From: Chiloscyllium plagiosum
Taxonomy: Eukaryota
Length of the DNA stretch: 47,023 nucleotides
Assembly: GCF_004010195.1 (NCBI RefSeq)
Contig: NC_057717.1
Span: 104,374,053-104,421,075 of the forward strand
Direction: 5' to 3'
The notes below the pieces were generated by a model that saw only the letters and a program-made list of their open reading frames with translations, searched no databases and had not been told where the DNA came from. Shown in pieces: positions 3,512 to 47,023 of the stretch. Each line of letters begins with the position of its first letter. The stretch's first letter is position 1. The position numbers and the translations under genes were made by a program.

Positions 3512-3724
3512 TTGAGGAGAAAGTGAGGTCTGCAGATGCTGGAGATCAGAGCTGAAAGTGTGTTGCTGGAAAAGCGCAGCAGGTCAGGCAGCATCCAGGG
3601 AACAGGAGAATTGACATTTCGGGCATAAGCCCTTCTTCAGGATTCCTGTTCCCTGTTCCCTGTCGATTCTCCTGTTCCCTGGATGCTGCCTGACCTGCTG
3701 CGCTTTTCCAGCAACACATTTTCA
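3512..3724. mobile_element. Palindromic Penelope-terminus insertion (family A) with 14-bp TSD
   Basis: Inverted arms (GCTGGAAAAGCGCAGCAGGTCAGGCAGCATCC and its complement). TSD cctccctggaatca at 3498-3511 and 3725-3738. Confidence 0.8.
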
Positions 3725-3797
3725 CCTCCCTGGAATCACTCTTGTAAATCATGTTTGCACTCTCTCTGTTGTGTGAAAGATGTGTTCGTATCTTTAC

Positions 3798-4096
3798 GGG
3801 CAGCACAGTGGCTCAGTGGTTAGCACAGCCACCTCCCAGCACCAAGGTCCTACGTTCAATTCCAGCCTCAGGCGACTGTCTGTGTGGAGTTTGCACATTC
3901 TCCCTGTGTCTGCGTTGGTTTCCTCCCACAGTCCAAAGATGTGCAGGTCAGGTGAATTGGTTGTGCTAAATTGCCCATAGTGTTAGGTGCATTAGTCAGA
4001 GGGCAATGGGTCTGGGTGAATTAGCTCTTTGGAGGGTCGATGTGGACTGGTTGGGCCAATGGACCTGTTTCCACACTGTAGGGAATCTAATCTAAG
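3798..4096 (+). mobile_element. HE1-type SINE
   Basis: Head, V-domain and GGGAATCTAATCTAA tail. Confidence 0.9.
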
Positions 4097-4145
4097 CTTT
4101 TCCATAATGTGGTGTTCACAGTACTCCTGCTGAATTGCATGAGCA

Positions 4146-4433
4146 TAGAGTCCCTACAGTGTAGAAGCAGTCCACACAGACCCTCCAAAGAGATCACTCC
4201 CAGACCCACCCCTCTATCCCTCCCTGTAATACCCATGGCTAACCCACCAAACCTACACATGCCTGTGACACGATGGGGTGATTTAGCACAGCCAATCTAC
4301 ATCTTCAGACTGGGAGGAAACCCACGCAGACACGGGGAGAATGTGCAAACTCCACACAGGCAGTCACCCGAGGCTGGGATCGAACCCGAGTCTTTGGAAC
4401 TGTGAGGCAGCAGTGCCAGTCACTGAGCCACTG
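4146..4433 (-). mobile_element. HE1-type SINE, tail-to-tail with the previous copy
   Basis: Reverse-strand head and core. Confidence 0.85.
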
Positions 4434-4484
4434 CACGGTGCCCATTGTCTTGCGTCAGTTTAACATCACCTCATAATAAAAGTA

Positions 4485-4680
4485 AAATAATGGAGAAGCT
4501 GGAAATCTGAAACCAGCACAGGAAATACTGGAGAAACTCAGCAGGTCTGGTAGCATCAGTTTGGAGAAAGAGAAAAACAGAGTTAAACATTTTGAGTCCG
4601 CTCTGACTCTTTTTTACAAACGTCAACTCTGTTTCTCTCTCCACAGATGTTGCCGAACATGCTGAGCGTCTCTGTGCTCG
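4485..4680. mobile_element. Degenerate inverted-arm Penelope/MER6-like repeat (family C)
   Basis: CTGGAGAAACTCAGCAGGTCTGG..AGAGTT arm with inverted AACTCTGTTTCTCTCTCCACAGATG. Relatives at ~13515-13570, 33595-34055 and 35290-35375. Confidence 0.55.
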
Positions 4681-4825
4681 TTTCAACATCCCCTCGCTGT
4701 TCTTCTTCCCTCTGCCCTGATTAATAATGGAGCTGAGAATGCTCTATGGTTCATTAACTGCACTTCTCCGGCCTGTCCTGCCACTCTGTGCACATATACC
4801 AACCCTCCCCACCCCATCCCTGTGG

Positions 4826-5132
4826 GTGGCATGGTGGTTAGCGCTGCTGCCTCATATCACCAGGGACTCTGGTTCGATTCCAGCCTCAGGCGACTTCTGT
4901 GTGGAGTATGCACATTCTCCCCGTGTCTGCGTGGGTTTCCTCCGGGTGCTCTGGTTTCCATCCACAGTCCAAAGATGTGCAGGTAAGGTGAATTGACTAT
5001 GCTAAATCGCCCATCGTGTTAGCTGCATTAGTCAGAGGGAAATGGGTCTGGGTGGGTTAGTCTTCGGAGGGTCGGTGTGGACTGGTTGGGCTGAAGGGCC
5101 TGTTTTCATTCTGTAGGGAATCTAATCTAATC
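4826..5132 (+). mobile_element. HE1-type SINE
   Basis: Head, core and (TCTAA)n tail. Confidence 0.9.
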
Positions 5133-5766: not shown

Positions 5767-5981
5767 CAGAAAATATGATGCTGGAAAAGCACAGCTGTAC
5801 AGGCAGCATCTGAGGAGCAGGAGAATCGACGTTTTGAGCATTCGCCCTTTATCAGGAATGCTTATGCTCGAAACGCGATTCTCCTGCTCCTCAGATGCTA
5901 CCTGACTGGCTGTGCTTTTCCAGCATTACACGTTTTGGCTCTGACTCTCCAGCATCTGTGGTCCTCACTTTCTCCTACCTC
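5767..5981. mobile_element. Palindromic Penelope-terminus insertion (family A)
   Basis: Inverted arms; flanking direct repeat gttcaaaaa at 5758-5766 and 5982-5990. Confidence 0.7.
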
Positions 5982-7030: not shown

Positions 7031-8379
7031 AATATATATCTACGTCCTTCTTGAAGATCTTCAATGTTTTGGCTTCAATAGTTTCCTGTGGCAGAGAATT
7101 CCACAAGCTGCCCAATCTCTGGGTGAAGACATTTCTCCTCAGCTCAGTCTGAAATGGCTTACCCTGTAACCTTAGCCTGTGACCCCTGGTTTCTGGACTC
7201 CCCAGTCATCAGGTAAATCCTTCCTGTGTAATTTTATAGGATTTTTTAATGAAATGCCTTCTCAGGCTTCTAAACTGTAGGGAACAGAGACGCAACCAAT
7301 CTAGTCTCTCCCAGTACATCTGTCCCAGCATCCCAGGAATCAGTCGATCAACCATCTTTGCCCTCCCTTGCTGGCCAGATCATCCCCCTCAGGAGACCAA
7401 GGCAGGGAGCCATCAGGACAGGCTAATGGTTAGTATGGAACCGGCAGGTTGCCTGATGAGGAAAAGCTGGACAGACTGGGCTTGTATCCATTGGACTTTC
7501 AAAGGATAAGGGCTGCCTTGATTGGAATATCTGAGATCCTGAGGATGGAGTGTGGAGGATATTTTCTCTTGTTGGAAAATCGAGAGCGGGGGTGGGGAGG
7601 AAGGAGATGTCGCTGTTTCTGAATCGTATCTGGGTCACATGGAGACCTGCGGAAGGGAGGGACAAAGGGGCTAAAGGGTAACTACTTCTGCAAAAAAACC
7701 CACTTCCCACTATATTTTGATGCATTTATGACAATAAATCTAAATATAAGACAAAGGCAGAAAATTAAACAGATGTCACCCATTTCTCAACAGCTGTAGG
7801 GAATGTTACATTCAAAATGATACGCTTGAAAGACTGAGTTAGCCTGAGAATTGAAACATGCTGAGAGACTGAAATCTATTATGCAGTCCTGGAGAAGCTC
7901 TCGCTGTCTCCATGGGTGATCTGTACTGAGAACATTTGTCCTGGATGAATGGACAAACAGCGAGAGAGGCCAATGGATGGGAAAGAATGTCTGGATGATC
8001 CAGTCGCACTGTCTCTCTGTGCCAAATGTAGCACACTCTGAATCTCTGCTCTCAACTGTCCAGCACCTGACTAGCCTCTGCTCTGAGCTACCCCGTCAGG
8101 AGGCAGGGTGATAGTTAGTCAGGCACAACTACCTCTTGTAGCTCAAAGAACTGGGCAAATCGATTCTTCACAAATATCCTCAATGCAAGTCTGAATGTTC
8201 AAGACCTGCTCAAACAAAAATTGACTCCCTGTAGGATTGAGAGTCCGAGAACGGGTAATTAATGTGTAAAAGCAGCAACTTGGTGAAGTTTATGGGATTG
8301 TGGGAGTTGGTGGGGGTGGCGGGGAATAGAGGGCAGGCTGCAAGACAAATGGCAGAGCGATGCAGACTGTACAACAACT

Positions 8380-8541
8380 CTAAGTTAACATTCACACAAC
8401 ACCAAGTTATAGTCCAACCACCTGATGAAGGAGCGGTGCTCCGAAAGCTAGTGCTTCCAATTAAACCTGTTGGAATGTAACCTGGTGTGGTGTAATTTTT
8501 AACTTTGTCCACCCCGGTCCAACACCAGCATCTCCAAATCA
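8380..8541 (+). mobile_element. Penelope-terminus insertion (family B) with 11-bp TSD and a short inverted arm
   Basis: TSD gtacaacaact at 8369-8379 and 8542-8552. Contains CTGATGAAGGAGC..GCTCCGAAAGCTAGTG. Confidence 0.75.
8419..8453 (+). ncRNA. Minimal type I hammerhead ribozyme motif (family B)
   Basis: cac-CTGATGA-A-GGAGC-ggt-GCTCC-GAAAG-CTA-gtg: core, 5-bp stem II, palindromic AGCT helix III, CUA triplet, 3-bp helix I. Confidence 0.65.
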
Positions 8542-10023: not shown

Positions 10024-12010
10024 ATACATAAGATTGGTGGTATAGTGGACAGTGAAGAAGGTTCTCTGGGAGTACAGCCAGATCTTGGTCAACTAGGCCA
10101 ATGGAGTTTAGATTTTCTGTTAGATTAAATTCCCTACAGTGTGAAAACAGGCCCTTCAGCTCAACAAGTCCACACCGACCCTACAAAGAGTAACCCACCC
10201 AGAACCATTTCCCTCTGACAGATGCACTTAACACTACGGGCAATTGAGCATGACCAATTCACCTGGTCTGCACATCTTTGGACTGTGGGAGGAAACCGGA
10301 GCATCCGGAGGAAACCCACGCAGACACGGGGAGAATGTGCAAACTCCACACAGTCAGTTGCCCGAGGCTGGAATCGAACCCGAATCCCTGTCATTGTTTT
10401 TTTTAGATTAGATTACTTACAGTGTGGAAACAGGCCCTTCGGCCCAACAAGTGCACACCGACCCGCCGAAGCGCAACCCACCCATACCCCTACCCCTACA
10501 TTTACCCCTAACCTAACACTACGGGCAATTTAGCATGGCCAATTCACCTGACCTGCACATCTTTTGGATTGTGGGAGGAAACCGGAGCACCCGGAGGAAA
10601 CCCACGCAGACACGGGGAGAACGTGCAAACTCCACACAGTCAGTCGCCTGAGGAGGGAATTGAACCCGGATCTCTGGCGCTGTGAGGCAGCAGTGCTAAC
10701 CACTGTGCCACCGTGCCGCCCTTAGAGAAGGAAAGTAGGATAGCAGCCTCAAGGCAGAGACCTTAAGTGAGCTCGAGGTCATTGTGAGACAGTAGTGCTA
10801 ACCACTGAGCCACCGTGCCGCCCTTAGAGAAGGGAAGTAGGATAGCAGCCTCAAGGCAGAGACCTTAAGTGAGCTCGAGGTCCAGTGAGGCCTCAGAAGA
10901 ACTTGAGCACATATGTGAAAATTATAAAACCAGGTACCACTGGACTGAGAGTCACTATCAGACAGCGAGCAGCAGTGGATATTGGTGAACTGGAATCGGC
11001 ACACATAAGGAGCAAAGGTTTGGATGAACACAACATTAGGGAGTGGCTAGTGAGGGTCCAGGTCAGATACAGAGAGAGAGAGATTGGGTTGGATAGTGAG
11101 AGAGCAGGTCAGGGAGGGAGAGAGAGATAGGGGAGGAAACAGTGAGAGACCAGGTCAGAGAGAGAGATTGGGGAGTGGGCAGTGAGAGAGCAAGCCAGGG
11201 AGAGAGAGAGAGAGTGGGGAGGAGATAGTGAGAGACCAGGCCAGACAAATGTGAGGTGTTGCATTTTGGTGGGTCAAACCAGGGCAGGACTTATACAGTC
11301 AATGGTAGAGCCCTGGGGAGTGTTATAGAACAAAGAGATCTAAGGGTACAGGTTCAGAGCTCCCTGAAAGTGGAGTCACAGTTGGACAGGGCAGTAAAGA
11401 AGGCTTTCAATCTGTTTGCTTTCGTCAGTCAGAGCATTGAGTCCAGGAGTTGAAATATCTTGTTGCACCTAAGGCCACATTTGGAGCACTGCGTGCAGTT
11501 CTGGTCACTCTACTATGGAAAGGATATTATTAAACTAGAAAGGGTGCAGAAAAGATTTATTAAGATACTACCTGGACTGGAGGGTTTGGGAGAGGCTGGA
11601 TAGACTGGAACTTTTTTCCCTGGAGCATGGGACACTGAGGGGTTACCTTATAGAGGTTTATAAAATCATGGGAGGCATGGCTAGGGTGAATAACTAAAAA
11701 CGTTTCCACATGGTAAGGCGGTACTAAAATTAGAGGGCATAGGTTAAAGGTGAGAGGGGATAGATACAAAAAGGTCCAAAGGGGCAATTGTTTCACACAG
11801 AGGGTGGCGAGTGTCTGGGAGGCTACCAGAGGGATTGATGGAGGTGGTACAATTTGTCATTTAGTAACATTTGGGCAGGTACATGGATGGGATGGGTATG
11901 GAGGGATATGGACCAATCGCAGGAAAGTGGGATTAGATTCAATGTGAAAACTGGGCAGCATGGAGGCATTGGGCTGAAGGGCCTGTTTCCATGATGCAGA
12001 CCTCTATGAC
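10024..12010 (+). mobile_element. CR1 LINE RT C-terminal half and 3'UTR, split by a ~1.1 kb insert of nested SINEs and GA-rich DNA (~10109-11240)
   Basis: KIGGIVDSEEG..Q.DL.QLGQW at the left continues as KCEVLHFG.SNQGRTYTVNG..L.SV.EQRDL.VQV at ~11245. Confidence 0.85.
10110..10822 (-). mobile_element. HE1 SINE interrupted by a second full-length HE1 SINE (10404-10720)
   Basis: TSD gtcattgt at 10390-10397 and 10778-10785. The outer SINE head resumes at 10786-10822. Confidence 0.85.
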
Positions 12011-15790: not shown

Positions 15791-16076
15791 CTCCTGACCT
15801 GTCGATGGTGGCCGTGGCTTCATTGTAATTGACAACGTGAAGATTGAGCAAGTCTCCCAGGTTTAAAGCGGCTGTAGTTCTCATGTGATGGCTTAACATT
15901 CCAGGGGATGATGAGTATCATGCTTCTGAGAAGAAGAAACGAGGAGGGGGTGGGGAAGGAGGCACGTGCATGATAACTTTCAGAATCCCCCGCAAAGAGG
16001 AAGTAAGATCTCACTATGACAAATGAGATGGAACCTGTAAACCACAGCTGGCTATCAGTGACAATGTGAAACCATT

Positions 16077-16383
16077 TTCTGGATTAGTGGTTCTGGAAGA
16101 CCACAGCAGTCCAGGCAGCATCCAAGTAGCTTCGAAATCGACGTTTCGGGCAAAAGCCCTTCATCAGGAATAAAGGCTCTTCAACCATGTCCAGCTACTT
16201 TCTCCCCACCCTCCTCTAGCTTATCTCTCCATGCTTCAGGCTCACTGCCTTTATTCCTGATGAAGGGCTTTTGCCCGAAACGTCGATTTCGCTGCTCCTT
16301 GGATGCTGCCTGAACTGCTGTGCTCTTCCAGCACCACTAATCCAGAACCTGGTTTCCAGCATCTGCAGTCATTGTTTTTACCC
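16077..16383. mobile_element. Penelope-terminus insertion (family A) with inverted arms and 15-bp TSD
   Basis: TSD caatgtgaaaccatt at 16062-16076 and 16384-16398. Arms ~16077-16177 and ~16247-16347. Confidence 0.85.
16255..16286 (+). ncRNA. Minimal hammerhead motif (family A), with a mirror copy on the minus strand at 16138-16169
   Basis: tc-CTGATGA-A-GGGC-tttt-GCCC-GAAAC-GTC-ga. Helix I is only 2 bp. Confidence 0.55.
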
Positions 16384-17269: not shown

Positions 17270-18166
17270 GCCACACACATACTAACCATACTCATACTGC
17301 ACACTCATATACATTCAAACTCATACAAACACACACACAGTTACTCAAACTCACACACTCCTAGTGATACAACCATATCACTCACACTCAAAATCACACA
17401 TTCTCAAACACACTCCTTACACTCAAACTTACACTCACACAAACATGTGTGTACATTCAAGAGTCACATACTCACACACAAACACAATCTTAAACACACC
17501 CTCACACATCTGAAACACAAAATTAAATGCACACACATTTATCATCATACTTGCATCAATCAAATATCTACAAACTTTCAATTACTCACATGTAGACGTG
17601 AGCAGACTTACTCACACACTTAAACATTGACAATAACTCAGACACACACATAAACATTGCACACACACACACACACACTCACACACACACACACACACAC
17701 TCACACACTCACACACTCACACACACACACTCACACACACACTCACACACACACACACACTCACACACACACACACACTCACACACACACACACACTCAC
17801 ACACACACACACACTCACACACACACACACACTCACACACACACACACACTCACACACACACACACACTCACACACACACACACACTCACACACACACAC
17901 ACACTCACACACACACACACACTCACACACACACACACACTCACACACACACACACACTCACACACACACACACACTCACACACACACACACACTCACAC
18001 ACACACACACACTCACACACACACACACACTCACACACACACACACACTCACACACACACACACACTCACACACACACACACACTCACACACACACACTC
18101 ACACACACTCACACACACACTCACACACACACACACACTCACACACACACACGCACACACACACAC
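17270..18166. repeat. CA-rich low complexity grading into a (CA)n microsatellite with 18-bp higher-order unit TCACACACACACACACAC (~17660-18166)
   Basis: Direct reading; source of the HT/CV repeat ORFs. Confidence 0.95.
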
Positions 18167-20028: not shown

Positions 20029-20246
20029 ATGTTGAAACTTTATTGCTGGAACAGCACAGCAGGTCAGGCAGCATCCAGGGAACAGGAGATTCGACGTTTC
20101 GGACACAGGCCCTTCCTCATTCCTGAAGAAGGGCCTGTGCCCGAAACGTCGAATCTCCTGTTCCCTGGATGCTGCCTGACCTGCTGTGCTGTTCCAGCAA
20201 TAAAGTTTCAACTTTGATCTCCAGCATCTGCAGACCTCACTTTCTC
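20029..20246. mobile_element. Near-perfect palindromic Penelope-terminus insertion (family A) with 12-bp TSD
   Basis: About 85-bp inverted arms with one mismatch (20031-20115 vs 20128-20212). TSD ctggttgtaatt at 20017-20028 and 20247-20258. Confidence 0.88.
20119..20154 (+). ncRNA. Minimal type I hammerhead ribozyme motif (best family A copy)
   Basis: attc-CTGAAGA-A-GGGC-ctgt-GCCC-GAAAC-GTC-gaat: 4-bp helix I, 4-bp stem II, palindromic ACGT helix III, GUC cleavage triplet at 20148-20150. Confidence 0.7.
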
Positions 20247-25900: not shown

Positions 25901-28900
25901 CACTAAACCCACAGCGCGAGATCAGGGTTCAGTTCCCCAGCAGCTGTGATGAAGCAAGCTGGAGTTTTACTCCCTCATAACTTACTCACCAGTTCACAAA
26001 CAATGTGAGTTCATTCTGTGGATTGTCACAATGGAATGTGAACTCAAACACTGACTTGACCTGAAGCCAAGGCTCCCGTGTACCGTGATTGTAATCTCAT
26101 TCAATAATTGTGTGATATCTTGATGCCTATTGACTCTGAAGCTGGAGCAATGGACTCCAGTGGAATAAACCCAACAAAGAATTAAACATGCAGGGCAACC
26201 AGGGATTGGAGATTTGAGTGTTGTATCTGACGAGAGGGACGTGAAAAGACTCTGGATGGTCTACAAGCATTTGTCATCTCAATACTCCTCCAAATCTGGC
26301 CTCTTACATTCCACAGGATGTTGTGGTTCTGTTCGCCGAGCTGGAAGTTTTTGTTGCAAACGTTTCGTCCCCTGGCTAAGTGGTCTGTCCCTGCCGCTTC
26401 CGGTTGTCAGTTTCAGCTGTCCGCTGTAGTGGTTGGTATATGCTAACAATCCGCATACATGAACATCAACTAGCCACGAAACGACACGACCAGCTATCCT
26501 TAGTAGCCACACACGCAGACAACAAGCAACATGAATTCGACTGGGACAACACTACTATCATAGGGCAAGCCAGACAGAGAACAGCCAGGGAATTCCTAGA
26601 GGCATGGCATTCATCCACAAACTCCATCAACAAACACATCGACCTGGACCCAATATACCAACCACTACATGTGCCTCAGGGTGTTTTACCTGCGTTAAAG
26701 GCGCTATATCAAGGCAGTGTTGTTGTTTTATGTTCTATACACCAGTCCTGTATAAACTCCCTTCCCTCTTTCCCTTTCTCAGGATCACTTCCAGCAGCTC
26801 AGACCTGGGGGTTGCCTTAACCTCCTGCAGGTCTCCATTCCTGTACAATCTGAACAGCACCAATCCCAGGCCACGCACACAGTGAGTCCTTCCCTGCAAA
26901 TCCCAGCGTCAGTTGGGATGAAGTGTTTTGCTGGGAGGTGCTGGGATTCATTTCCCTCACACCCCTGCACTGGAAACTCACTGTTTAGATCAGAGTGGTG
27001 CTGGAAAAGCACAGCAGGTCAGGCAGCATCCGGGGAGCAGGAAAATCGACGTTTCAGGCATAGGCCTTCATCAGGAATTTTTTGTGGAAACTCACAATCA
27101 TTCTGTCCAAATTCTCGCCTTGGCTCAAATTTTAAATTGTTTCTCGCATTTTAGTTTTGGAGAAATCAGACCTGAAAGATATCATGCTGCAATTCCAGGA
27201 TGAAGTGACACGGATGGAGGATCGAGGTGAGTGGGATCGTACAGCATCAATAGAATGGCAGCATGTGAAACACTGAGCAAAGTTTCAGGCACAGATATCA
27301 CTATCTGTCGTCTATACAGCTCCCCCTCACCAAGTGAATAGGTTGAAAGGGCTCAGAAAAGATTTTCAAGGATGTAGCTGGAGTTTTACAAAGTTAAAAA
27401 TCACACCACACCAGCTTACAGACCAACAGGTTTATTTGGAAGCACTAGACTTCGGAGCGCTGCTCTGTCATCAGGTGGTTGTGGAATATAAGATCGTAAA
27501 CACAGAATTTATAGCAAAAGTTTACAGTGTGATGTAACTAAAATTATACACTGAAAAAGACCTGGAGTGTTTGTTAAGTCTCTCATCTTTTAGAATGACC
27601 ATGTTGGTTTCAGTTTCTTCTGGGGTTGGAGGGTTTGAGCTATAGCAAGAGGCTGAACAGGCTGGGGCTGTTTTCCCTGGAGCGTCAGAGGCTGAGGGGC
27701 GACCTTATAGAGGTTTATAACATCATGAGGGACATGGATAGGGTAAATAAACAAGGTCTTTTCCCTGGGATGGGGGAGTCCAGAACTAGAGGGCATAGGT
27801 TCAGGGTGAGAGGGGAAAGATATAAAAGAGACCTAAGGGGCAACTTTTTCTTGCAGAACGTGATGTGTGTATGGAATGAGCTGCCAGAGGAAGTGGTGGA
27901 GTCTGGTTCAATTGCAACATTTAAAAGGCATTTGGATGGGTATATGATTAGGAAGGGTTTGGAGGGATATGGACCAAGTGCTGGCAAATGGGACAAGATT
28001 AATTTAGGATATCTGGTCGACATGGACAGGTCTGACTGAAGGGTCTGTTTCAGTGCTGTACATCTCTGTGACTCTAGTTCCCTCAGACATTCTCCAAGTA
28101 TGGTCAAATATCAGTTCTGAAATAGTCAACTGAGACAGGATGCCAATTCATGGAATATTTCAGGGAACGTCGCTGGGACACACACATTAAACAACCCCAC
28201 GTCCCTGTGGACAACTACTTCAACTCCCCCTCCCACTCACCAAAGGACATGCAAGTCCTGGGCCTCCTCCAGCACCAAATCAAAGCCACCTGCCTACTGG
28301 AGGAATAATGCCTCATCTTCCATCTTGGGACCTTTCAGCCACATGGCATCAACATTGACTTCACTAGTTTCCAAAACTCCCCCTTCTCCCACTCCATCCC
28401 AGAACGAACCCTCCAAATTGGCACCACTCTCTTGAACGGTCTCACCTGTCCATCTTCCTTCCCACCTATCTGCTCCATCTTCCCCTCCGACCTATCACTA
28501 TCACCCCCCCACCAATGTCTCCCTATTGCCTTTCCAGCTACTTCACCCCCACCCCCACCCTCCTATTTATCCCTCAAACCCCCTCCCCCACCACATTCTT
28601 GATGCCCAAAATGTTGATTCTCCCGCTCCTCAGATGCTGCCTGACCTTCTGTCCATTCCCAGAGCTCTTCACTGTCTCCGAGTTGGACTGAAGGGTCTGT
28701 TTCTGTGCTGTGCAGCTGGATAACTCCACAAGTGGGACTAGATTAATTTCAGATATCTGGTCAGCATAGACGAGTTGGACCAAAGGGTTTGTTCCCATGC
28801 TGTACAATGACTCTATGAACATCTCCAATCCAATCACAGAACAGTACAGCATAGGAACAGGCCCATTGGCCCACCTTGTCTGTACCCATTCGAGATGTTA

Positions 28901-31900
28901 ATCCCTAATCCTGAGCAACAACTACGTTTTCAATTCCAAATTGTCTTTTAATGACATGGGAGGGCTTGAATGGAGTCTGAAGTGCTGTCAGTCTCCTAGG
29001 TTCAGAGTGAAAGAAATTCCTGTTGGAGTGAGGGTCAGTCTCCTGCAGGTGGCAGCAGCTCCCCACTGGCTGGAGATGTGAGAGAATCTGCCTCAATGAG
29101 GCAGGATTATCGACAGAAAGAGAGAGAGAGAAAATGTAGGGGAGGAAAACAGAGTGGGGAGGGAGAGGGAAGCAAGAGACGGAGAAAAACAGACAGCGAG
29201 GAAAAAGGAGAGAGGGAGGGAAAGAGGGAGGATGAGGGAAACACAGAGAGAGGGGGAGACAGAGGGAGGGAACCAGAGACAGAGGGAAAGGGAGAGATGA
29301 AAAAATCAGTCTGTTACATCTGACCATATCAAATCCCTTACTCCAGGTGGACGACACCCACATCAATCCTCCTTGTTACTTCCTCAAAATGTTCTATTAC
29401 ATTAGTAAAACACAGTCTTCCCTTAACAAAGCCATTCTGCCCCTCCTTGGTTAATGTGTGCCTTTTTAAATGAGGTGTAGAGGTGATTCAGACACTTTTC
29501 CCACCACCCAGGATCAGAGTAGTCATCCTCGTCATTTGGCTTCTTCCCCATCTCCATTTTAACCAAGGCTACAACATTTAGATTTCTCCAGTCCTCTGGG
29601 TAGCTCCCCTATGCAGAGTGAGGATTGCAAAATGATCCTTTTACGAACGAGAGGGACCGTATTGTTGAAGAGGAGAGTGTGAAATGGACTGGTAAGCTAG
29701 AGGAGATACTTGTTAGGAAGGAAGATGTGTTGGACATTTTGAACAACTTGAGGATAGACAAGTCCCCCGGGCCTGACGGGATATATTTTAGGATTATGTG
29801 GGAAGCAAGAGAGGAAATTGCAGTACCGTTGGCAATGATCTTTTCATCTTCACTGTCAACAGGGGTGGTACCAGGGGACTGGAGAGTGGCAAATGTTGTG
29901 CCCCTGTTCAAAAAAAGGNNNNNNNNNNNNNNNNNNNNNNNNNNNNNNNNNNNNNNNNNNNNNNNNNNNNNNNNNNNNNNNNNNNNNNNNNNNNNNNNNN
30001 NNNNNNNNNNNNNNNNNNNNNNNNNNNNNNNNNNNNNNNNNNNNNNNNNNNNNNNNNNNNNNNNNNNNNNNNNNNNNNNNNNNNNNNNNNNNNNNNNNNN
30101 NNNNNNNNNNNNNNNNNNNNNNNNNNNNNNNNNNNNNNNNNNNNNNNNNNNNNNNNNNNNNNNNNNNNNNNNNNNNNNNNNNNNNNNNNNNNNNNNNNNN
30201 NNNNNNNNNNNNNNNNNNNNNNNNNNNNNNNNNNNNNNNNNNNNNNNNNNNNNNNNNNNNNNNNNNNNNNNNNNNNNNNNNNNNNNNNNNNNNNNNNNNN
30301 NNNNNNNNNNNNNNNNNNNNNNNNNNNNNNNNNNNNNNNNNNNNNNNNNNNNNNNNNNNNNNNNNNNNNNNNNNNNNNNNNNNNNNNNNNNNNNNNNNNN
30401 NNNNNNNNNNNNNNNNNNNNNNNNNNNNNNNNNNNNNNNNNNNNNNNNNNNNNNNNNNNNNNNNNNNNNNNNNNNNNNNNNNNNNNNNNNNNNNNNNNNN
30501 NNNNNNNNNNNNNNNNNNNNNNNNNNNNNNNNNNNNNNNNNNNNNNNNNNNNNNNNNNNNNNNNNNNNNNNNNNNNNNNNNNNNNNNNNNNNNNNNNNNN
30601 NNNNNNNNNNNNNNNNNNNNNNNNNNNNNNNNNNNNNNNNNNNNNNNNNNNNNNNNNNNNNNNNNNNNNNNNNNNNNNNNNNNNNNNNNNNNNNNNNNNN
30701 NNNNNNNNNNNNNNNNNNNNNNNNNNNNNNNNNNNNNNNNNNNNNNNNNNNNNNNNNNNNNNNNNNNNNNNNNNNNNNNNTTTTTCCCCGGGTACAATAG
30801 AGTGTTACAAGGGGACATAAATTTAAGGTGAAGGGTGGAAGGTATAGGGGAGATGTCAGGGGTGGGTTCTTTACCCAGAGAGTGGTGGGGGCATGGAATG
30901 CGCTGCCTGTGGGAGTGGCAGAGTCAGAATCTTTGGTGACCTTTAAGCGGCAATTGGATAGGTACATGGATGGGTGCTTAAGCTAGGACAAATGTTCGGC
31001 ACAACACTGTGGGCCGAAGGGCCTGTTCTGTGCTGTATTGTTCTATGTTCTATGTTCTATCCTCAGAGCATTTACCATTTCCTCCCTGGCTTCCTTTAAC
31101 TGCCAGGATACAATACTGCCAGCCCGGGGGGAAATGTGTCCACTTTGAGGAAGGTCAGTCCCTCCCAGACTGCTCTTGACATTCAGCTTATTGTATTTCA
31201 GATTTCCCACTCCTTCTGTTTAATGAGACTGTCTACACATCCCCTTACTTTGTGAAGGCTAATCATTAAGAACCTGGCCCCATCTTCTGCATCTCACACA
31301 AGTTCCCATGAACATGCTAATAGACCCAACCCTTGTCTTAGTCTTCCTCTTGCTCTTAATGCACTGAATAAACACCTTTGTATTTTCTTTGATTTTGCCC
31401 TCTAATATTTTCTGATGTCCTTTTTTTTCTTCCGAGATTTCCTTTTTATTTGCCCAACACTGTGCCTTCTATATTTCTCTGGGACTTCTGCAGGATTAAG
31501 GTTTTTTTTTGAGATTGTCAACCGCTCTATTTTTCTTCTTGCCCTTACCCTGTGTGCACCTGGAATCCCCTACTGCCTGCTCTGAGCTTGTCCTGTCTGA
31601 ATCCACTCTAAGTTTCCCACCACCCTGCCAACCTCAATGAAACCATTTCCCACAGCGTGAGCATATCTTCCCTGTGAGAACCTACAACCCAGTCCTGCTC
31701 AGGTACAGACAGTTCGGCCTCTACAGGTCACATGCTCCCCAGAGCCAGTTCCAAATACCTGAGACATCTGACACTTGCCCCTCCTACACTAGCTTTTCAA
31801 CCACACCCTGGACCCCTCCAGTCTGTCTCCACTCCCTGATTGCACATGGAACTGGGAATTATCCAGAAATTAGTGTTTTAGGCAACATGCCTTTCAATCT

Positions 31901-34900
31901 CCTGCCTGAATCCCTGAATCTGTTTCCAGGACCTCGCCCGTTCCTACCCAAGTCATTTGGAACAATGTTTGACCTTGACCCCTGACTGTTCACCCTCCCT
32001 CTTCAGAATGTCCTATATCCTTGACCCTGGCACCAGGTAGGCACAGAAGCACACCAACCTGGACTCACATCTTTCACCGCAGAAACACTCCCAAATCCCC
32101 GAGCAAAACTGCTCTTCCCTCTTCTACCTTCCCTGCTTGTACAGCAGAGCCACCCATGGTGCCATGAACTTGAATCTGAATGCACTCTTCTGGGGAACCA
32201 GCACCCTCCCCGTTATCCCAAACAGCAAACCCTTTCATGTGTGGGTCCCCAGGGCATTTCTGAATGAACCCCCTGGTTTTCATGGACTGTTGGTTGGGCA
32301 GGCAGTTTCTCTCTGTGGTCATGCTGCTCATGTGTGGTGTGACCATCTCCCTGAACATGCCTTCCATGTAGTTCTCAGCCTGCTGGGGAAACCCCAGGGA
32401 CTTCAATTGCCGTTCAAGACCTGACACTTGGAGCTCAGCTTGCTGCAGCTGCTATCACTTCCTGTCACAATCTTCACTTCCATCTATGAGAGGGCACAAA
32501 TTCCACATGACAAAACTGTCCTGTCATACCTTAGCACAGTTTACCTATGCAACTTTATTTTACTTTAGTTTACTTACATTAACTTAATTATAATTTGTGT
32601 GTCTGTTAGTGTGTGATTTAGTATGTTTGTGTGTATGGGATGCGTGTGTATCAGTGTGTGTGTGTGTGTGAGTGTATGTGCATCTGTGTTTGTGTGTGTG
32701 AGTGCTTGTTTGTGTCTGTATATGTGTGTATTAGTCTGTGTGCGTGTCTGTCTGTATGTATGTGTGTGTGTTTGGGTGTATGTGTGTGTCCATGAGTTTA
32801 TGAGTGCGTGAGTGTTNNNNNNNNNNNNNNNNNNNNNNNNNNNNNNNNNNNNNNNNNNNNNNNNNNNNNNNNNNNNNNNNNNNNNNNNNNNNNNNNNNNN
32901 NNNNNNNNNNNNNNNNNNNNNNNNNNNNNNNNNNNNNNNNNNNNNNNNNNNNNNNNNNNNNNNNNNNNNNNNNNNNNNNNNNNNNNNNNNNNNNNNNNNN
33001 NNNNNNNNNNNNNNNNNNNNNNNNNNNNNNNNNNNNNNNNNNNNNNNNNNNNNNNNNNNNNNNNNNNNNNNNNNNNNNNNNNNNNNNNNNNNNNNNNNNN
33101 NNNNNNNNNNNNNNNNNNNNNNNNNNNNNNNNNNNNNNNNNNNNNNNNNNNNNNNNNNNNNNNNNNNNNNNNNNNNNNNNNNNNNNNNNNNNNNNNNNNN
33201 NNNNNNNNNNNNNNNNNNNNNNNNNNNNNNNNNNNNNNNNNNNNNNNNNNNNNNNNNNNNNNNNNNNNNNNNNNNNNNNNNNNNNNNNNNNNTATGTATG
33301 TGTGTATGTGTACGTGTTTGTGTGTGTATCTGTGTGTGTATGTATGTGTGTGTGTATGTGTGTGTGTGTACGTGTTTGGGTTTGCCTGTTACTGTGTATT
33401 TATCACGCCTTCTGATCGATACTAGATTTCCTTTTGCTGTTTAGTTTTGGCTGCATTTTCGAACAAGATGACTAACTTCATGAGCAAGATATCCATGAAA
33501 ATCGAAATGCTGCCAGAACCCGGTGAGTTTTGAAGTTGAAGATTGAAGTAAAGTGAGTGTTTGTTTCTGTAAATCACAAGGATTAAATAACAAGTGAACA
33601 CAAATGGAAATTGCTGGAGAAACCCAGCAGGTCTGGGGCAGCATCTGTGGAGAGAGAAACAGTTCACATTTCGAGTCCAGTGACCGTCCAGAACTAGAGG
33701 GCAAAGGTTTAGGGTGAGAGGGGAAAGATATAAAAGAGACCTAAGGGGCAACTTTTTCACTCGGAGGTGGTACGTGTATGGAATGAGCTGCCAGAGGAAG
33801 TGGTGGAGGCTGGTACAATTGCAACATTTAAAAGGCATCTGGATGGGTGTATGAGTAGGAAGGGTTTGGAGGGATATGGGCCGGGTGCTGGCAGGTGGGA
33901 CTAGATTGAGTTGGGATATCTGGTCGGCATGGACTAAAGAGTCTGTTTCCATGTTGTACTACTCTATGACTCTAAAACAGATCCATCGCAGAAGTTGCCA
34001 GACCTGCTGAGTTTCTCTAGCAATTTCTGTGTGTGTTTCAGATTTCCAGCATCTTACTTTATTTTAAAATAATGTTTTATTTTAAATAATTGCTTTATTT
34101 TAAATAATGAGTGATCTGGTCGAGTGAACGGGAGGAGGTCCCTCTGCACCCTCTCTGATTGGTGAGCTAGCCTTGGTGCCATGATTTATTCACAAGTCAG
34201 GAGGCCGTCCTACTGGACTGGACCAGGTTGGCAGCCAAGGTAGGAAACTACAGAAAGAGCAACTTACTCTAAGCACTTAAAGATATGAATGAAGCCAAGA
34301 CAGCAACTCATTGTTTAAAGAATGGGAGCTAATGTTTTCAATGGTCTTCGCTACGACCCAGGACGCTGTTAATGGTGCAGTGATGGGAATGGGGAGGCCA
34401 CTATTAAAAGGAAGTCATTAAAATGTGTTGAATCCCTGTCAAACTGAAACTGTTTCACACAATTCTCATTCCATTGTTGATTTATCCTCTCAGTATTGAC
34501 AATTCAGTGTGAAATCAGACATAATCAAACAGCACGGCAGGTACGATATGTCTGATGGTCTGATTGGATTCCTGTACCTTATCTCCTCAATTTTCTACAG
34601 CATGCCAGAACCTTCAGTGCCCGCGGTATTGGGTAAACTTCAATGACAGCTGTTACTACTTTTCAACTCAAGAAGCCTCATGGAACTCCAGCAAGACATA
34701 CTGCTCCCTACGACACTCCTACCTTGTCAGCATTAACACAGCTGAAGAGCAGGTGAAGTTACACTGACACATTGGGCACTGGTTCAGCTATCTGTTCAAG
34801 ACTGCATTGCAAAGACTTTCCAGATAGAAAGCAGTCCCACTTTTGTTCAGCAAAGCTATTAGAAGAATCGTAGACTCTCTACAGCACAAATAGAGAGCAT

Positions 34901-39194: not shown

Positions 39195-39416
39195 TGATTT
39201 AGAGATGTCGGTGTTGTACTGGGGTGTATAAAGTTAAAAATCACGCAACACCAGGTTATAGCCCAACAGGTTTAATTGGAAGCACACTCGCTTTCGGAGC
39301 GAAGCTCCTTCGTCAGGTGGTTCATCACTACCACCTGATGATGGAGTGTCGCTCCGAAAGCGAGTGTGCTTCCAATTAAACCTGTTGGGCTATAACCTGG
39401 TGTTGCGTGATTTGTA
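39195..39416. mobile_element. Palindromic Penelope-terminus insertion (family B) with 12-bp TSD, in the presumptive lectin 3'UTR
   Basis: About 83-bp inverted arms (39238-39320 vs 39331-39413). TSD agttagcattta at 39183-39194 and 39417-39428. Confidence 0.85.
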
Positions 39417-39819
39417 AGTTAGCATTTAGAATGTGCCATGCTTTTAGGGCACTGTGCTCAACTCACCTCAGCTGTGCCAAGTGCTACAGTCACCCCTGGC
39501 ACACGTTTCTCTGCATTACAACAGCAACAACATTTCAAAAGTAGCAATCAACTCACGGATGTGTAAAACGCCATAGAAATGCAAGTCTTCCTAATTCTAA
39601 TTCCATGTGACTATCGCAACTGTTTGCAGTCTGTCTGTTTTTATACAATGATTATTTCATAGTTGACTGAATAACAACAAATCTGTAATATTTCTGAAGA
39701 TTCATTTTGTTTTTTTTTGATTATTACTGATTTATTCCTGTCATATTTCCAGTCAGTTAAGTCAATTCATTAAATTTATGAGATAGTGATTAATTCTAAG
39801 GTATAAGTCTTCTTTAAGA

Positions 39820-41160: not shown

Positions 41161-41521
41161 TAGAGTTAGTGTTAGACTGAGACAGTGATCCTGACACTAC
41201 AGACTTAGTGTTAGACTGAGACAGTGACCCTGACGTTACAGACTTAGTGCTAGACTAAGACAGTGACCCTGATGTTACAAAGTTAGTGTTAGACTGAGAC
41301 AGTGACCCTGACGTTACAAAGTTAGTGTTAGACTGAGACAGTAACTCTGACATACAGAGTTAATGTTAGACTGAGACAGTGACCCTGATGTTACAGAGTT
41401 AATGTTAGACTGAGACAGTGACCCTGACGTTTCAGAGTTGGTGTTAGACTGAGACAGTGACTCTAGCATTACAGAGTTAGTGTTGGACTGAGACAATGAC
41501 CCTGACGTTACTGAGTTAGTG
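41161..41521. repeat. 39-bp minisatellite, ~9 copies (ACAGAGTTAGTGTTAGACTGAGACAGTGACCCTGACGTT)
   Basis: Direct tandem periodicity. Confidence 0.93.
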
Positions 41522-41561
41522 TAAGCATGGTATGCCAGTGAGAAGGTGAATGTGGTGATTG

Positions 41562-42259: not shown

Positions 42260-42738
42260 ATTGGATACAAGACATTGTGTCCTTGCTGCCATTTCTGGCT
42301 TTAGAAGAGGAGATATTCCTGAATCGATCTAAAGGTTTTTTTTTAAATTGTGTTTGTGTCCAATCCAAACTCCACATGTTTCCTCAAAGCGAGAACAACA
42401 CACAGCAGTTCACATCTCCCGGAGTACAGGTCGGATGTTACATGTTACCGAAAGCGTCCAACCACCCAAAAGACAATTTAAGGCAGGGGTCATGCACTTA
42501 AACAAACTGGCCCCGGATTCCAACAGAAACAAGTGGAAACGTCGGCTGCCTGGTACTGGAGGGATTTATTGGAGGAGAAGGGTGAGGTGAGGAGGGCCAA
42601 TGTCAACAACGTGCATTGATATAGTGCCTCAGATGTGGGAAAAACATACCCGGGAGCTTCACAGGAATCAGAGAAGTTCAGAAAGATGCTGCGAAAAGCC
42701 AGGATTAGAGGAGCGATGAGTCCTCAGGTGATTATAGA

Positions 42739-42933
42739 CTCCCCTCCCCCAAGTCCCTCCTCCCTAACTTTTATCTTAGCCTGCTGGGCACACTTTCCTC
42801 ATTCCTGAAGAAGGGCTTATGCCCGAAACGTCGATTCTCCTGCTCCTTGGATGCTGCCTGACCTGCTGTGCTTTTCCAGCAACACATTTTCAGCTCTGAT
42901 CTCCAGCATCTGCCGTCCTCACTTTCTCCTCGA
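42739..42933 (+). mobile_element. Penelope 3'-terminus insertion (family A) with 10-bp TSD and a hammerhead core at 42803-42834
   Basis: TSD tgattataga at 42729-42738 and 42934-42943. CTGAAGA-A-GGGC-ttat-GCCC-GAAAC-GTC. Confidence 0.8.
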
Positions 42934-43039
42934 TGATTATAGATCCTCCAGAGGAAGGGAGGGTCAGTACCACTGAGGGATTTGAACAATTGAGTACAAG
43001 TTTAAATGCTGCTGTAGTGTCATTACAGGAGGCAATGAC

Positions 43040-43590
43040 ATTTATTATACCAACCTCACGGCACGGAATGGTATTCAGCTCACCACGTCTATACCAACCA
43101 TGATGCCATCCTAAACTAATCCCATCTCCCTGCACATGGTCCATATCCCTCTATTCTCTGCCTATTCATGTGCCTGTCTAAATCCTCTAAACAATGCTAT
43201 CATATGTACTTCAACAACCTCCCCTGGTAGCATGTTCCCGGCACCCACTACCCTCTGCATTAAAAAAAATCTTGTCTTGCACATCTCCCTTAAACTTTTC
43301 CCCTCTCACCTTCAACCTATACCCCCTTGTATTTGACATTTGCACTCTGGAGAAAAGACTCTGACTATCCACCCTTTCCATGTCTCTCGGAGTATGATGT
43401 AATTCAATCAGGTCACCCCTCAGCCTCCGACACACTTCTGAAAACAATCCAGGTTTGTCCAACCTTTCCTCATAACTAATACACTCCAAACCAGGCAACA
43501 TCCTGGTAAACCTCTCCTGCGCCCCTTCCAAAGCCTCCACATCCTTCCACTCGTGTGATGACCAGAACTGCACACAATACTTATAATTGC
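43040..43590 (-). mobile_element. CR1 LINE 3' fragment
   Basis: YCVQFWS...KDVEALEG.QERFTRMLPGLE..SYEERLDK.GLFS...RRLRGDLIE. Confidence 0.9.
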
Positions 43591-43952
43591 AAAATACTCT
43601 TCTCCCTGGACAATGTTGAATGGAATATTCTAGTGTTAGCAACGAGCCATTGTGGAGCCGAAGGGTGTTGAGCTGGCTTTGAAGGCTCCTTGGCCACTCA
43701 CGGAATCACCTGCTGGTTAAATGCATCGTGTTTGTAACCTTTGCAGAGTTTGTCTCTCAGACCGATGGTGATGTCAGTGCCAGTCCAGATGCTTGAACAG
43801 TTTGGGTTCCCCTCCAGTAACCTTCCTGTACCTGTCCAGTAGGTGATGGTCTTGCCTGAGGCTGTGTGTTTGAGCCTTATCCAGGGACAAAGCTTCTGAT
43901 TAATATGGGATTTACACATTAATCACTCAAAACCTGCATCCTCATTCTCTAA

Positions 43953-44922
43953 GTCATAGAGTCATGGAGTCATAGAGATGTACAGCACGGAAACAGACCC
44001 TTTGGTCTAACCCATCCATGCCGACCAGATATCCAAACCCAATCTAGTCCCACCTGCCAGCACCCGGCCCATATCCCTCCAAACCCTTCCTATTCATATA
44101 GCCATCCAAATGCCTCTTAAATGTTGCAATTGTACCAGCCTCCACCACTNNNNNNNNNNNNNNNNNNNNNNNNNNNNNNNNNNNNNNNNNNNNNNNNNNN
44201 NNNNNNNNNNNNNNNNNNNNNNNNNNNNNNNNNNNNNNNNNNNNNNNNNNNNNNNNNNNNNNNNNNNNNNNNNNNNNNNNNNNNNNNNNNNNNNNNNNNN
44301 NNNNNNNNNNNNNNNNNNNNNNNNNNNNNNNNNNNNNNNNNNNNNNNNNNNNNNNNNNNNNNNNNNNNNNNNNNNNNNNNNNNNNNNNNNNNNNNNNNNN
44401 NNNNNNNNNNNNNNNNNNNNNNNNNNNNNNNNNNNNNNNNNNNNNNNNNNNNNNNNNNNNNNNNNNNNNNNNNNNNNNNNNNNNNNNNNNNNNNNNNNNN
44501 NNNNNNNNNNNNNNNNNNNNNNNNNNNNNNNNNNNNNNNNNNNNNNNNNNNNNNNNNNNNNNNNNNNNNNNNNNNNNNNNNNNNNNNNNNNNNNNNNNNN
44601 NNNNNNNNNNNNNNNNNNNNNNNNNNNNNNNNNNNNNNNNNNNNNNNNNNNNNNNNNNNNNNNNNNNNNNNGTGTCATCTGCAAACTTACTAACTGTACC
44701 TCTTATGTTCGCATCCAAATCATTTATATAAATAACAAAAAGTAGAGGGCCCAGCATCGATCCTTGTGGAGGCACTGGTCACAACCTCCACCACCACCCT
44801 CTGTCTTCTACCTTTGAGCCAGTTCTGTATCCAAATAGCTAGTTCTCCCTGTATTCCACGAGATCTAACCTTGCTAATCAGTCTCCCATGGGGAACCTTG
44901 TTGAATGCCTTACTGAAGTCCA
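43953..44922 (-). mobile_element. CR1 LINE RT core and 3' end spanning an assembly gap (44150-44671)
   Basis: [19 protein letters not shown]...SKFADD RT motifs. Confidence 0.92.
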
Positions 44923-45150
44923 GTGATTAAAGGCTTAACAGCAATCTAGGTTTGTTCAATACTTTGCACCAGTTGTAAGACACTTTGATGTTTTACTATA
45001 AACTCTGTGTCCTTTGATCCTGCCCCTGATGAAGGAGCAGCGCTCTGAAAGCTAGTGCTTCCAAATAAACCTGTCGGACTATAACCTGGTGCTGTGTGAT
45101 TTTTTAACTTTGTCTACCCCAGTCCAACACCAGCTCCTCCACATCTTCAA
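44923..45150 (+). mobile_element. Penelope terminus (family B) with a hammerhead core at 45026-45057
   Basis: CTGATGA-A-GGAGC-agc-GCTCT-GAAAG-CTA-GTG. Confidence 0.7.
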
Positions 45151-46718
45151 CATGTTGGACAGAGGCTGGTTTGTAATGACTGAAAGTGAAACCTTGTTTA
45201 ACCTCATGCTGCTGCTGATCCTATCTGCCAGCCCTTACACTTCGAAAGCTGGGTTGACCAGTGTGTCAGTGAAACAATTTCGTTTTGTTGTTGCGTGAGG
45301 GTCTGGCACTTTGTGAAGACACACCTACCGAGACGGAGTGAAACGGACATCTGGTATTTCAACTTGTTTAAACTGCTCCCAACTTTGTCTCATTATCACT
45401 CGGTGCTCAGTAGCGACTCGTTCAGGAAATATTCCGAGCAGGGAAGTGAGTAAAAATACATTGTTTCATGTGTGGAGAAATCCTCAAAGCAGGAACATAA
45501 CTTGTCTTGTTGATATTTGGTTCAATACCAAGTAACCCTCCCAGAGTTTAAGATGGACTCTTCCAAACAGATGTGATTCCAAAGCCTCTGTTGTGACACA
45601 CTGTGTGAAGTCTTTAAAGAAAGGGTTCGAGCTGGGTGTGAACTTTCTGACGATGAATGTGGTTTCACATCTGCTGAAGGGGTAAGGATCGGACAGGCAC
45701 AGGCTCCACGCTGAAAACACACCACACAGGGAGTACATGAGCGCGGTAACTAGGGCTAACACTGAGCGAGAGGGAGGTCAAAGGGACCTGGTCATCCGAC
45801 TGCAACAGGGAAACTGTGTGTCTGTCTGTCTGTGTCTGTGTTTATGTGTGTGCCTGTCTGTGTTTGTGTCTGTGTTTATGGGTCTGTCTGTGTGTCAGTC
45901 TGTCTGTCTGTGTCTGTGTTTATGTGTGTGCCGTGTTTATGTGTGTGTCTGTGTTTGTGTTGATTTGGAGATGCCGGTGTTGGACTCTGCTGTACAACGT
46001 TAACTTTGACTCCAGAAGTCAGTTGAGGACCTCCCCCCCCGGTCTGTATAACACAATCTGAATTCTTTGTAGACTGCCTCCTGTTGTTCCTGCTCTTCAA
46101 TTATACAGCCTCGTCTGCACCCCTCCCCCACCACCTCTCTACCTTTGTTCAAAATGAACTTGCACACATCCATTACAATTCGGATCTGACACAACTGCTT
46201 TATTTTCCCACAGCATTTGTACCCGACACTGGGCAATATATTGCGATTCAGTCAGTTTACTCTTTATGGAGAGGTGGTGAGGTGTGTATTGTTTATTGAG
46301 ACATTCCAGTGGGAGGGCAGCTTCTGGTTATGTACCTCTTGTCTGTCCATGTCTCTAGTTCTGTAAGTCATTGCTGGGCAGTCATCAAAGTTTAAACAGT
46401 CTAGAGATGGTCATGGTCACAAAGTTGACATTAATTAAAGAATGAACAGGGATTTGCTCACACTTTTTTCTTGCAGGCCAGACTAGGTAAATCTGTTGAC
46501 AATCCTGTGCCTATCCTCTGTACTTTGTGTGTTGTTCCTAGCATGTTCTCAGCAGTTAATAACCACTGCATTGTAGTGTGGGGCTGGAGTTAATTTTTTA
46601 ATTTCAAAAATATACTTTCTTCATAAAATATTTTGATGATCTGCCAATTGGTCATGCCATACATGCATAAACATTCCATTTCTTTGCATACAGAGAGAGA
46701 GTAATCATTCATATATAC

Positions 46719-47023
46719 ATGATTTGGAGATGCCGGTGTTGGACTGGGGTGTACAAAGTTAAAAATCACACAACACCAGGTTATAGTCCAACAGGTTTAA
46801 TTGGAAGCACAGTAGCTTTCGGAGCGACGCTCCTTCATCAGGTGATTGTGGAGGGCTCGATCGTAACACAGAATTTATAGCAAAAATTTGCAGTGTGATG
46901 TAACTGAAATTATACATTGAAAAATTGATTGTCTGCTAAGCCTTTCATCTGTTAGAATACAGTGATAGTTTCACTACTTTCATGTGTAAATCACAAAACC
47001 TTTTTTTAAAAAGTTGCATTCTC
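46719..47023 (-). mobile_element. Penelope terminus (family B) running off the window, hammerhead core at 46813-46841
   Basis: Same sequence family as 27386-27620 and 39195-39416; reverse complement reads CTGATGA-A-GGAGC-gtc-GCTCC-GAAAG-CTA. Confidence 0.75.

Follow-up and report, generated by a model that had tools for sequence, protein, structure and literature searches.

Hammerhead-like motifs in a 47-kb stretch of the bamboo shark genome

The 47,023-nt stretch of the bamboo shark (Chiloscyllium plagiosum) genome analysed here, referred to as the window, contains two families of short repeated insertions, A and B, which carry hammerhead ribozyme-like cores and appear to derive from the 3′ ends of Penelope-like elements (PLEs). 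By homology, 13 insertions (seven of family A and six of family B) with a total of 14 cores were found, six of the cores being fully intact, two nearly intact and six decayed (Table 1). The family A core reads CTGA(A/T)GA-A-GGGC-N4-GCCC-GAAACGTC and ends GCCC-GAAA-CG-TC. The family B core reads CTGATGA-A-GGAGC-N3-GCTCC-GAAAGCTA and ends GCTCC-GAAA-GC-TA.

An earlier reading of this DNA from its letters alone (the sequence-only reading) had reported two families of such motifs in about ten insertions. The recurrence of the motifs and every coordinate named were recovered, but the count proved too low. A further decayed family A copy (28588-28662) and a family B tail-only fragment (45961-46003) had been overlooked, and near 39335, where a decayed family B core was correctly noticed, the head-to-head partner core at 39288-39316(-) had been missed; both of these cores carry G in place of U16.1. 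The core near 3640, described as decayed, is intact at 3613-3640(-) except for C15.2>T (GAAATGTC). The family B core at 45026 was found as listed, with the qualification that its helix II is closed by a G.U pair.

The loose pattern CTGAWGA-N(4-30)-GAAA matched the window 15 times compared with 3.15 matches expected (sd 1.95, largest 9), and none of 100 shuffles reached 15. Eleven of these matches are members of family A or B, while the remaining four (7190, 24964, 25317 and 37021/37029) are due to chance or to other repeats, those at 24964 and 25317 lying within a 29-nt tandem repeat. The box pair at 7190-7212(-) has a 3-bp stem, lacks G10.1-C11.1, lies inside a different interspersed repeat and probably arose by chance.

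The exact core patterns were searched for across the 3.56-Gb genome. This returned 86,254 exact family A cores and 16,739 exact family B cores, that is, at least 103,000 exact cores, and none for the reversed control patterns. At 40 places the sequence is 100% identical over 147 nt, which indicates recent activity.

Conserved positions and base pairing

In both families, CUGANGA and GAAA boxes surround a helix II hairpin, as seen in the eight intact or nearly intact cores of the window. Both also have an additional A inserted after position 9 and before 10.1; among 20 family B copies this column hardly varies. The pair 10.1-11.1 is G-C in all family A subfamily majorities; among 18 distinct rows of family B it is G-C in 12 and G.U in five. 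The palindrome A15.1-N15.2-N16.2-U16.1 reads ACGU in family A and AGCU in family B, where 94% of cells are paired. Position 17 is C in family A, A or U in family B and never G. Contiguous pairs in helix I number four in the CTGT/ATGT class, two in TTAT and TTTT, and three in family B (plus two after a C.C mismatch), in agreement with the 2-4 bp stated earlier; published minimal hammerhead ribozymes (min-HHRs) have 4-5 bp. For metazoan PLE min-HHRs, PMC4209133 (Cervera and De la Pena, 2014) names four features that lie outside the search descriptor and speak against a chance match, including families with compensating changes, G10.1-C11.1 and palindromic positions 15.2-16.2. As judged from the sequence, both families possess all four.

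For the comparison of conserved and variable positions, family A was divided into four subfamily classes according to nothing but the 8 nt that follow the cleavage site. When the majority sequences of these classes are compared, none of the 23 columns of core, stem and helix III vary, compared with 15 of the 28 columns in the flanks (Fisher p 1.9e-5) and three of the five columns that comprise N7 and the loop. Within a given subfamily, the core has decayed no differently from the sequence around it, quickest at CpG, and individual copies are neutral. The fixed columns between subfamilies, taken together with neutral decay within them, indicate that purifying selection acts on the hammerhead in the source lineages and not on individual copies. 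As stated previously, the stems are conserved and the loops variable; this reflects the existence of a few subfamilies and not selection copy by copy.

The stem II sequences of families A and B differ and each is fully complementary. This comparison was made by position; MAFFT placed the gap at the end owing to the extra stem II pair. Among the 18 distinct rows of family B, 82% of cells are paired compared with 27-44% when partners are slid, and at the third pair of helix I, nine rows have C-G and seven have U-A.

Link to Penelope-like elements

The family A core is located 160-470 nt downstream of a reading frame with reverse transcriptase (RT) and GIY-YIG endonuclease parts. The furthest-upstream family A copies run into the end of this frame, which in locus L013 lies approximately 190 nt upstream of the core. 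The sole database relative of the L013 frame is P0001, an uncharacterised bamboo shark protein of 359 aa with the motifs YIDD, a CxxC linker and YIGET and with a weak GIY-YIG match. Its origin in a bamboo shark fits the shark genome supposed by the sequence-only reading. A genome search using P0001 yielded 178,820 first-look candidates, among which open frames reach 918 aa, and in 15 of 20 loci retrieved with this protein a family A core follows downstream on the same strand. In L046:994-3672(-), an open frame of 893 aa is followed by a family A core 159 nt past its end. This frame shows RVT_1 at residues 358-541 (E 6.4e-8; 33 bits, Pfam cut-off 29.6) and GIY-YIG at residues 777-807 (E 3.5e-4). 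A single frame with an RT and then a C-terminal GIY-YIG, as predicted from this translation, fits a canonical endonuclease-bearing (EN+) PLE. In the window, insertion A6 is a decayed instance of the same order of parts, namely endonuclease frame, 3′ untranslated region (UTR) and core.

Family B copies also extend upstream, and in three of 15 loci (L062, L054 and L056) decayed frames with RT-thumb, CxxC and endonuclease parts were found 570-690 nt before the core. Between the L062 frame and that of family A, identity is 26% (E 2e-9). Judging from these frames, families A and B each represent the 3′ end of a PLE lineage, the two lineages being distant from one another, and are not free-standing elements. 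The sequence-only reading had suggested a link to PLEs, which the RT/GIY-YIG frames preceding both families now make a direct one; the motifs, which it had likened to PLE minimal hammerheads, match these feature by feature.

Other searches were negative. The L013 fragment alone had no Pfam match, and Pfam searches with 30 of the 79 window frames of at least 90 aa gave none either. A genome search with Pfam GIY-YIG produced one weak match among the 150 of 14,403 candidates that were scored. In L010 and L011, where two cores on one strand are separated by 2.4-2.6 kb, no PLE frame was found, and these candidates for full-length elements were rejected.

A resemblance to hammerheads that arose by chance and was multiplied by its position in an abundant repeat is highly improbable. 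The motif is short and without an Rfam match, and its copies decay like neutral DNA, all of which could be expected from such a resemblance. Against this, two PLE lineages as distant as those compared above share the same core with different compensating stems and palindromes, the core, stem and helix III columns are fixed among subfamilies whose flanks vary, and all four published features are present.

Structure and origin of the insertions

Target-site duplications of 11-16 bp were found at eight of the 13 window insertions (Table 1); these copies are therefore retro-insertions. Five insertions are head-to-head inverted duplications, in which the arms are 81-98% complementary with 4-69 nt between them. 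The identity of the arms can be used as a rough clock, according to which the window insertions would range from young (98%) to old (81%). In both families the copies form a 5′-truncation series. Family A copies end at ...TTTGAT or approximately 31 nt beyond it, and in all four family A hairpin insertions of the window only one end has this tail extension of about 31 nt. For PLE insertions, parts of Craig et al. (2021, PMC8557442) describe strong 5′ truncation, an adjacent inverted 5′-truncated copy and a tail of 30-40 bp at one end. The anatomy of the window insertions matches this architecture in its 5′ truncation, inverted copy and one-end tail.

Most probably, the motifs are minimal type-I hammerheads in the 3′ untranslated end of two canonical endonuclease-bearing PLE lineages, and the insertions are dead-on-arrival copies produced by target priming. 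Each window insertion would be the dead-on-arrival product of target-primed reverse transcription that begins in the element tail, 95-125 nt downstream of the hammerhead. Synthesis would pass back through the hammerhead and usually halt soon after, an inverted, 5′-truncated second copy would often accompany it, and the whole would be framed by a target-site duplication of 11-16 bp.

Table 1. Insertions of families A and B in the window; target-site duplications are given with the number of matching positions
Insertion	Description	Position	Strand	Core, loop and state	Arms and further parts	Target-site duplication
A1	Family A, head-to-head duplication; tail extension at left end	3514..3724	-	3613-3640(-), intact except C15.2>T	Inverted partial arm 3661-3724; arms 3549-3616 / 3661-3728, 96% complementary	CCTCCCTGGAATCA(T/C)T, 15/16
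A2	Family A, old head-to-head	5767..5978	+	5828-5855(-), dead (G8>A and G12>A)	Plus copy starts inside stem II loop; arms 81% complementary	CT(T/C)GTTCAAAAA, 11/12
B1	Family B (by homology)	8380..8539	+	8422-8450(+), loop GGT, intact	Short inverted piece 8382-8418	C(T/A)GTACAACAACT, 12/13
A3	Family A, head-to-head	16077..16382	+	16140-16167(-) and 16257-16284(+), both loop TTTT and intact	Arms 16068-16177 / 16247-16356, 93% complementary	(A/C)CAATGTGAAACCATT, 15/16
A4	Family A, young hairpin	20029..20244	+	20123-20150(+), loop CTGT, intact	Inverted arm 20031-20119 stops at core U4; arms 98% complementary, 4 nt between	T(A/C)CTGGTTGTAATT, 13/14
A5	Family A, short copy; start 4 nt upstream of core	26982..27083	-	27048-27074(-), 1-nt deletion in stem II		(C/G)TGGAAACTCAC, 11/12
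B2	Family B, decayed (by homology)	27387..27485	-	27446-27474(-), decayed		None clear
A6	Old 5′-truncated PLE copy (family A)	28132..28662	+	~28588-28615, destroyed by deletion	C-terminal remnant of endonuclease frame 28132-28347 (tblastn, P0001 residues 288-359, 61% identity, E 1.25e-20), then C/T-rich 3′ UTR; part of tail follows core (tail homology)	
B3	Family B, head-to-head	39195..39413	+	39288-39316(-) and 39335-39363(+), both U16.1>G	Arms 39231-39321 / 39330-39420, 93% complementary	GT(T/A)AGTTAGCATTTA, 14/15
A7	Family A, simple 5′-truncated copy	42739..42931	+	42805-42832(+), loop TTAT, intact	66 nt of 3′ UTR before core; full tail and extension	G(G/A)TGATTATAGA, 11/12
B4	Family B	44922..45145	+	45026-45054(+), loop AGC, intact except G10.1.U closing pair	104 nt of element sequence upstream; homology to 39 genomic copies, which reach further upstream, begins at 44922	None found
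B5	Family B, tail-only fragment (by homology)	45961..46003	-		Adjoins (TG)n microsatellite	
B6	Family B; 5′ limit uncertain	46691..46862	-	46813-46841(-), loop GTC, intact	21 nt upstream of core common to L044	

An impression by eye that B4 and B6 share upstream homology was not supported by BLAST. The tail block GGATGCTGCCTGA(C/A)CTGCTG occurs in every family A subfamily approximately 18-37 nt past the cleavage site (42850-42870, 20168-20188 and 16302-16322) and may be a signal for internal initiation of reverse transcription. Within 45815-46003, the position of B5 next to the (TG)n microsatellite recalls the insertion bias towards microsatellites mentioned for some PLEs in parts of PMC8557442.

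Possible cleavage at the hammerhead

By analogy with published PLE work, the RNA of the source elements may be cleaved 3′ of GUC in family A and 3′ of CUA/CUU in family B. Cleavage would need a dimer or a protein of the element, because the monomer cannot form helix III, the loop of which would be 2 nt. In thermodynamic folding of the monomer, stem II was predicted and the hammerhead junction was not, a result judged uninformative for so small a motif; cofolded dimers, which favoured GAA/UUC-CG-CG or a swapped stem II pairing over the ACGU helix III, were judged uninformative as well. The window copies themselves are mostly unable to act and are not under selection. Hairpin copies would fold into long duplexes rather than into the hammerhead, and action as dimers in cis is unlikely, because exact head-to-tail core pairs (gap of 100-130 nt) number only 134 genome-wide compared with approximately 86,000 cores.

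Besides the scarcity of head-to-tail pairs, several observations weigh against PLE hammerheads as the origin of the motifs or against their activity. Rfam hammerhead families gave no match in the window, whether the gathering score or a limit of E 10 was applied; this is expected because the motif lacks helix III, and still no curated model backs the hammerhead call. Helix I has just 2-4 contiguous pairs, and its covariation in family B amounts to one inherited event that did not exceed most shuffle controls. On the protein side, the GIY-YIG match of the L046 frame reaches 21.2 bits and thus stays below the cut-off of 22.6, the sequence upstream of this frame reads N after approximately 300 nt, which obscures the 5′ pseudo-long terminal repeat, and the link of family B to PLEs consists of three decayed loci only. 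On the RNA side, the insertions reach 95-125 nt past the cleavage site; the templates were therefore uncut at that hammerhead, which agrees with what parts of Frangieh et al. (2024, PMC11167929) report for the element PAc. Furthermore, the 343 reads of run X20 on L028:2350-3150 showed no pile-up of read starts or ends at the predicted site, although this single-cell poly(A) library is a poor test, and they covered the two strands about equally with a depth that tracks copy number. Runs X1 and X2 consist of contigs, which are unable to show read ends, and none of the 8.3 million records of run X21 could be placed, so that this run provides no test.

The retained tail, which points to templates uncut at the 3′ hammerhead, and the X20 reads without ends at the cleavage site would also fit a motif that is kept for a non-catalytic role in the PLE, either as a fold recognised by the RT or as a self-complementary site for cDNA annealing or snap-back, with cleavage being incidental. 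The clustering of inversion junctions at the hammerhead (see below) points in the same direction, and so do results on PAc from Anolis contained in parts of PMC11167929: hammerhead mutants had no effect on insertion in vitro, PAc RNA was cleaved only with protein, and the cut site was not represented among RNA-seq read ends. On the other hand, the positions that do not vary coincide precisely with those needed for catalysis, N7, loop 2 and H17 (never G) being free to vary, and a binding hairpin needs no such pattern. In addition, fungal and plant PLE hammerheads cleave well as monomers according to passages of PMC4209133. We consider a purely non-catalytic role unlikely.

Copy boundaries at the 5′ edge of the hammerhead

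Copy boundaries were assessed at the 65,074 exact cores with N7=A. While 60,499 of them (93%) keep 4 nt downstream, only 40,596 (62%) keep 4 nt and 22,164 (34%) keep 7 nt upstream. The boundaries are thus concentrated within 7 nt upstream of the CUGA box, where about two-thirds of the cores lose homology. By our reading, most such boundaries in the loci examined are inversion junctions at which both arms halt at the CUGA box. Three readings could explain this pile-up: transcripts whose 5′ end lies at that point, termination by the RT, or snap-back at the folded motif. As a tentative proposal, the 5′ edge of the hammerhead could be the main end-point of PLE retro-copies, either through a dominant hammerhead-led template of approximately 130-160 nt (a PLE-driven short interspersed element, SINE) or through RT stop, snap-back or cDNA pairing. 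If true, the PLE hammerhead would have a structural role in integration, instead of or besides the cutting of RNA.

The same boundaries bear on the question of whether many of the short copies represent a SINE-like or retrozyme-like non-autonomous element, whose short RNA from hammerhead to tail is copied in trans by the PLE enzyme. The uneven loss of sequence on the two sides of the core and the ending of both arms of head-to-head copies at the 5′ edge of the hammerhead would be explained in this way. Such an element would be in keeping with rare tandem arrays of 38-nt and 72-nt hammerhead units and with a non-coding unit of more than 3 kb with a family A terminus, which shows that trans mobilisation does occur. 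However, longer copies continue unbroken into the PLE reading frame, no Pol III head was detected (ARAGORN found 0 tRNA genes and Rfam none), and an RT stop or template switch at the folded hammerhead could equally give the pile-up. No RNA with that 5′ end was seen in the raw reads of the poorly suited library. A SINE-like element is possible, then, but not probable. Non-autonomous elements mobilised in trans, as assumed by the sequence-only reading, may account for a share of the copies in view of the pile-up and of the unit of more than 3 kb. The truncation series, however, runs into autonomous PLE frames; because of this and because open frames of up to 893-918 aa exist, dead-on-arrival truncated PLE copies are taken as the default.

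At seven loci the non-coding unit of more than 3 kb is 99.9-100% identical, with varying 5′ truncation points and a head-to-head terminus of family A at its end. Its positions include L025:1298-3265, L026 and L027:1298 to ~4815 and L011:2513-5401, and it has a 13-bp target-site duplication of its own (CTACTATGGCAGT in L025). Its features suggest a chimera of very recent origin that the PLE enzyme mobilised in trans.

Rare head-to-tail arrays of family A hammerheads were located at G000:C15:55272602-55273101 and G000:C15:63676068-63676216. Their periods are approximately 72 nt and 38 nt (core plus a GAAT-CC-ATTC spacer), and they resemble miniature retrozyme-like satellites.

Comparison with known systems

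PLE minimal hammerheads were first described in 2014 (PMC4209133, in part), and the families described here are an ordinary example of them, which also shows that the motif call of the sequence-only reading is trustworthy. As far as passages of that paper cover metazoan PLE min-HHRs, both share the core boxes, the extra base after A9, G10.1-C11.1, a loopless palindromic helix III, the terminal location in PLEs and a widespread occurrence as singles or as opposite-strand pairs 100-700 bp apart. The helix I of 2-4 contiguous pairs may correspond to the short one (4-5 bp) of the published min-HHRs. Differences concern helix II, which has 4-5 bp here and 6-8 bp in schistosome families, and the copy number, with at least 103,000 exact cores here compared with approximately 4,000 in coelacanth and approximately 9,000 in Xenopus. 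The host here is a cartilaginous fish, and none is named in those passages.

The Poseidon element PAc of Anolis carolinensis, as presented in parts of PMC11167929, is likewise an RT-GIY-YIG PLE with a hammerhead, and an internal start of its RT gives rise to a 'tail'. Both DNA strands are cut and extended by PAc, which fits the head-to-head copies in the window. Unlike in PAc, where the frame starts inside the hammerhead, the hammerhead here follows 160-470 nt after the end of the frame. Naiad/Chlamys and other PLEs (parts of PMC8557442) share 5′ truncation, the adjacent inverted truncated copy and the 30-40 bp tail at one end; these clades differ in having an N-terminal endonuclease and mostly no canonical hammerheads, whereas a C-terminal endonuclease occurs here together with hammerheads.

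Animal non-LTR (long terminal repeat) retrozymes (PMC7229834; preprint 10.64898/2026.07.22.740005; both in part) are also hammerhead-bearing non-coding sequences akin to PLE terminal repeats. They form tandem arrays that yield circular RNAs, in contrast to the window copies, which are dispersed singles or inverted pairs. Head-to-tail tandems of the retrozyme type were absent from the window, and genome-wide the exact pairs are the 134 mentioned above.

PLEs have already been reported in elephant shark and whale shark (parts of PMC4350176 and PMC8455134), and our literature search found no published account of the shark PLE hammerheads described here. The value of these families lies in their scale and freshness, that is, in more than 100,000 exact cores, open RT-endonuclease frames and 100% identical copies. 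They offer a natural system for studying the in vivo role of the PLE hammerhead, which is left open in the parts of PMC8557442 and PMC11167929 that deal with it, and the pile-up of boundaries at the hammerhead gives a concrete, testable lead on that role. For genome annotation, masking as PLE fragments is appropriate for these copies, which should not be entered as ribozyme genes.

Additional observations

Exact 31-letter words of 42650-43050 were present in runs X1-X19, which fall under four organism codes, with shares of 0.25-0.42; none of the runs listed is recorded as RNA. This share is close to the part of 42650-43050 taken up by the family A element and suggests near-identical copies in related species.

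N runs of irregular length occupy 29919-30780, 32817-33292 and 44150-44671 of the window, one of which ends 250 nt upstream of B4. N runs also occur in L004, L005, L014, L015, L020, L024 and L064, and in several long PLE copies they start just upstream of the 3′ UTR. Other tandem repeats of the window comprise an 18-nt CA-rich unit present 28 times (17660-18166), a 29-nt unit present 15 times (24990-25427), a 39-nt unit present nine times (41162-41522) and duplications of 286 nt and 102 nt (10120-10882).

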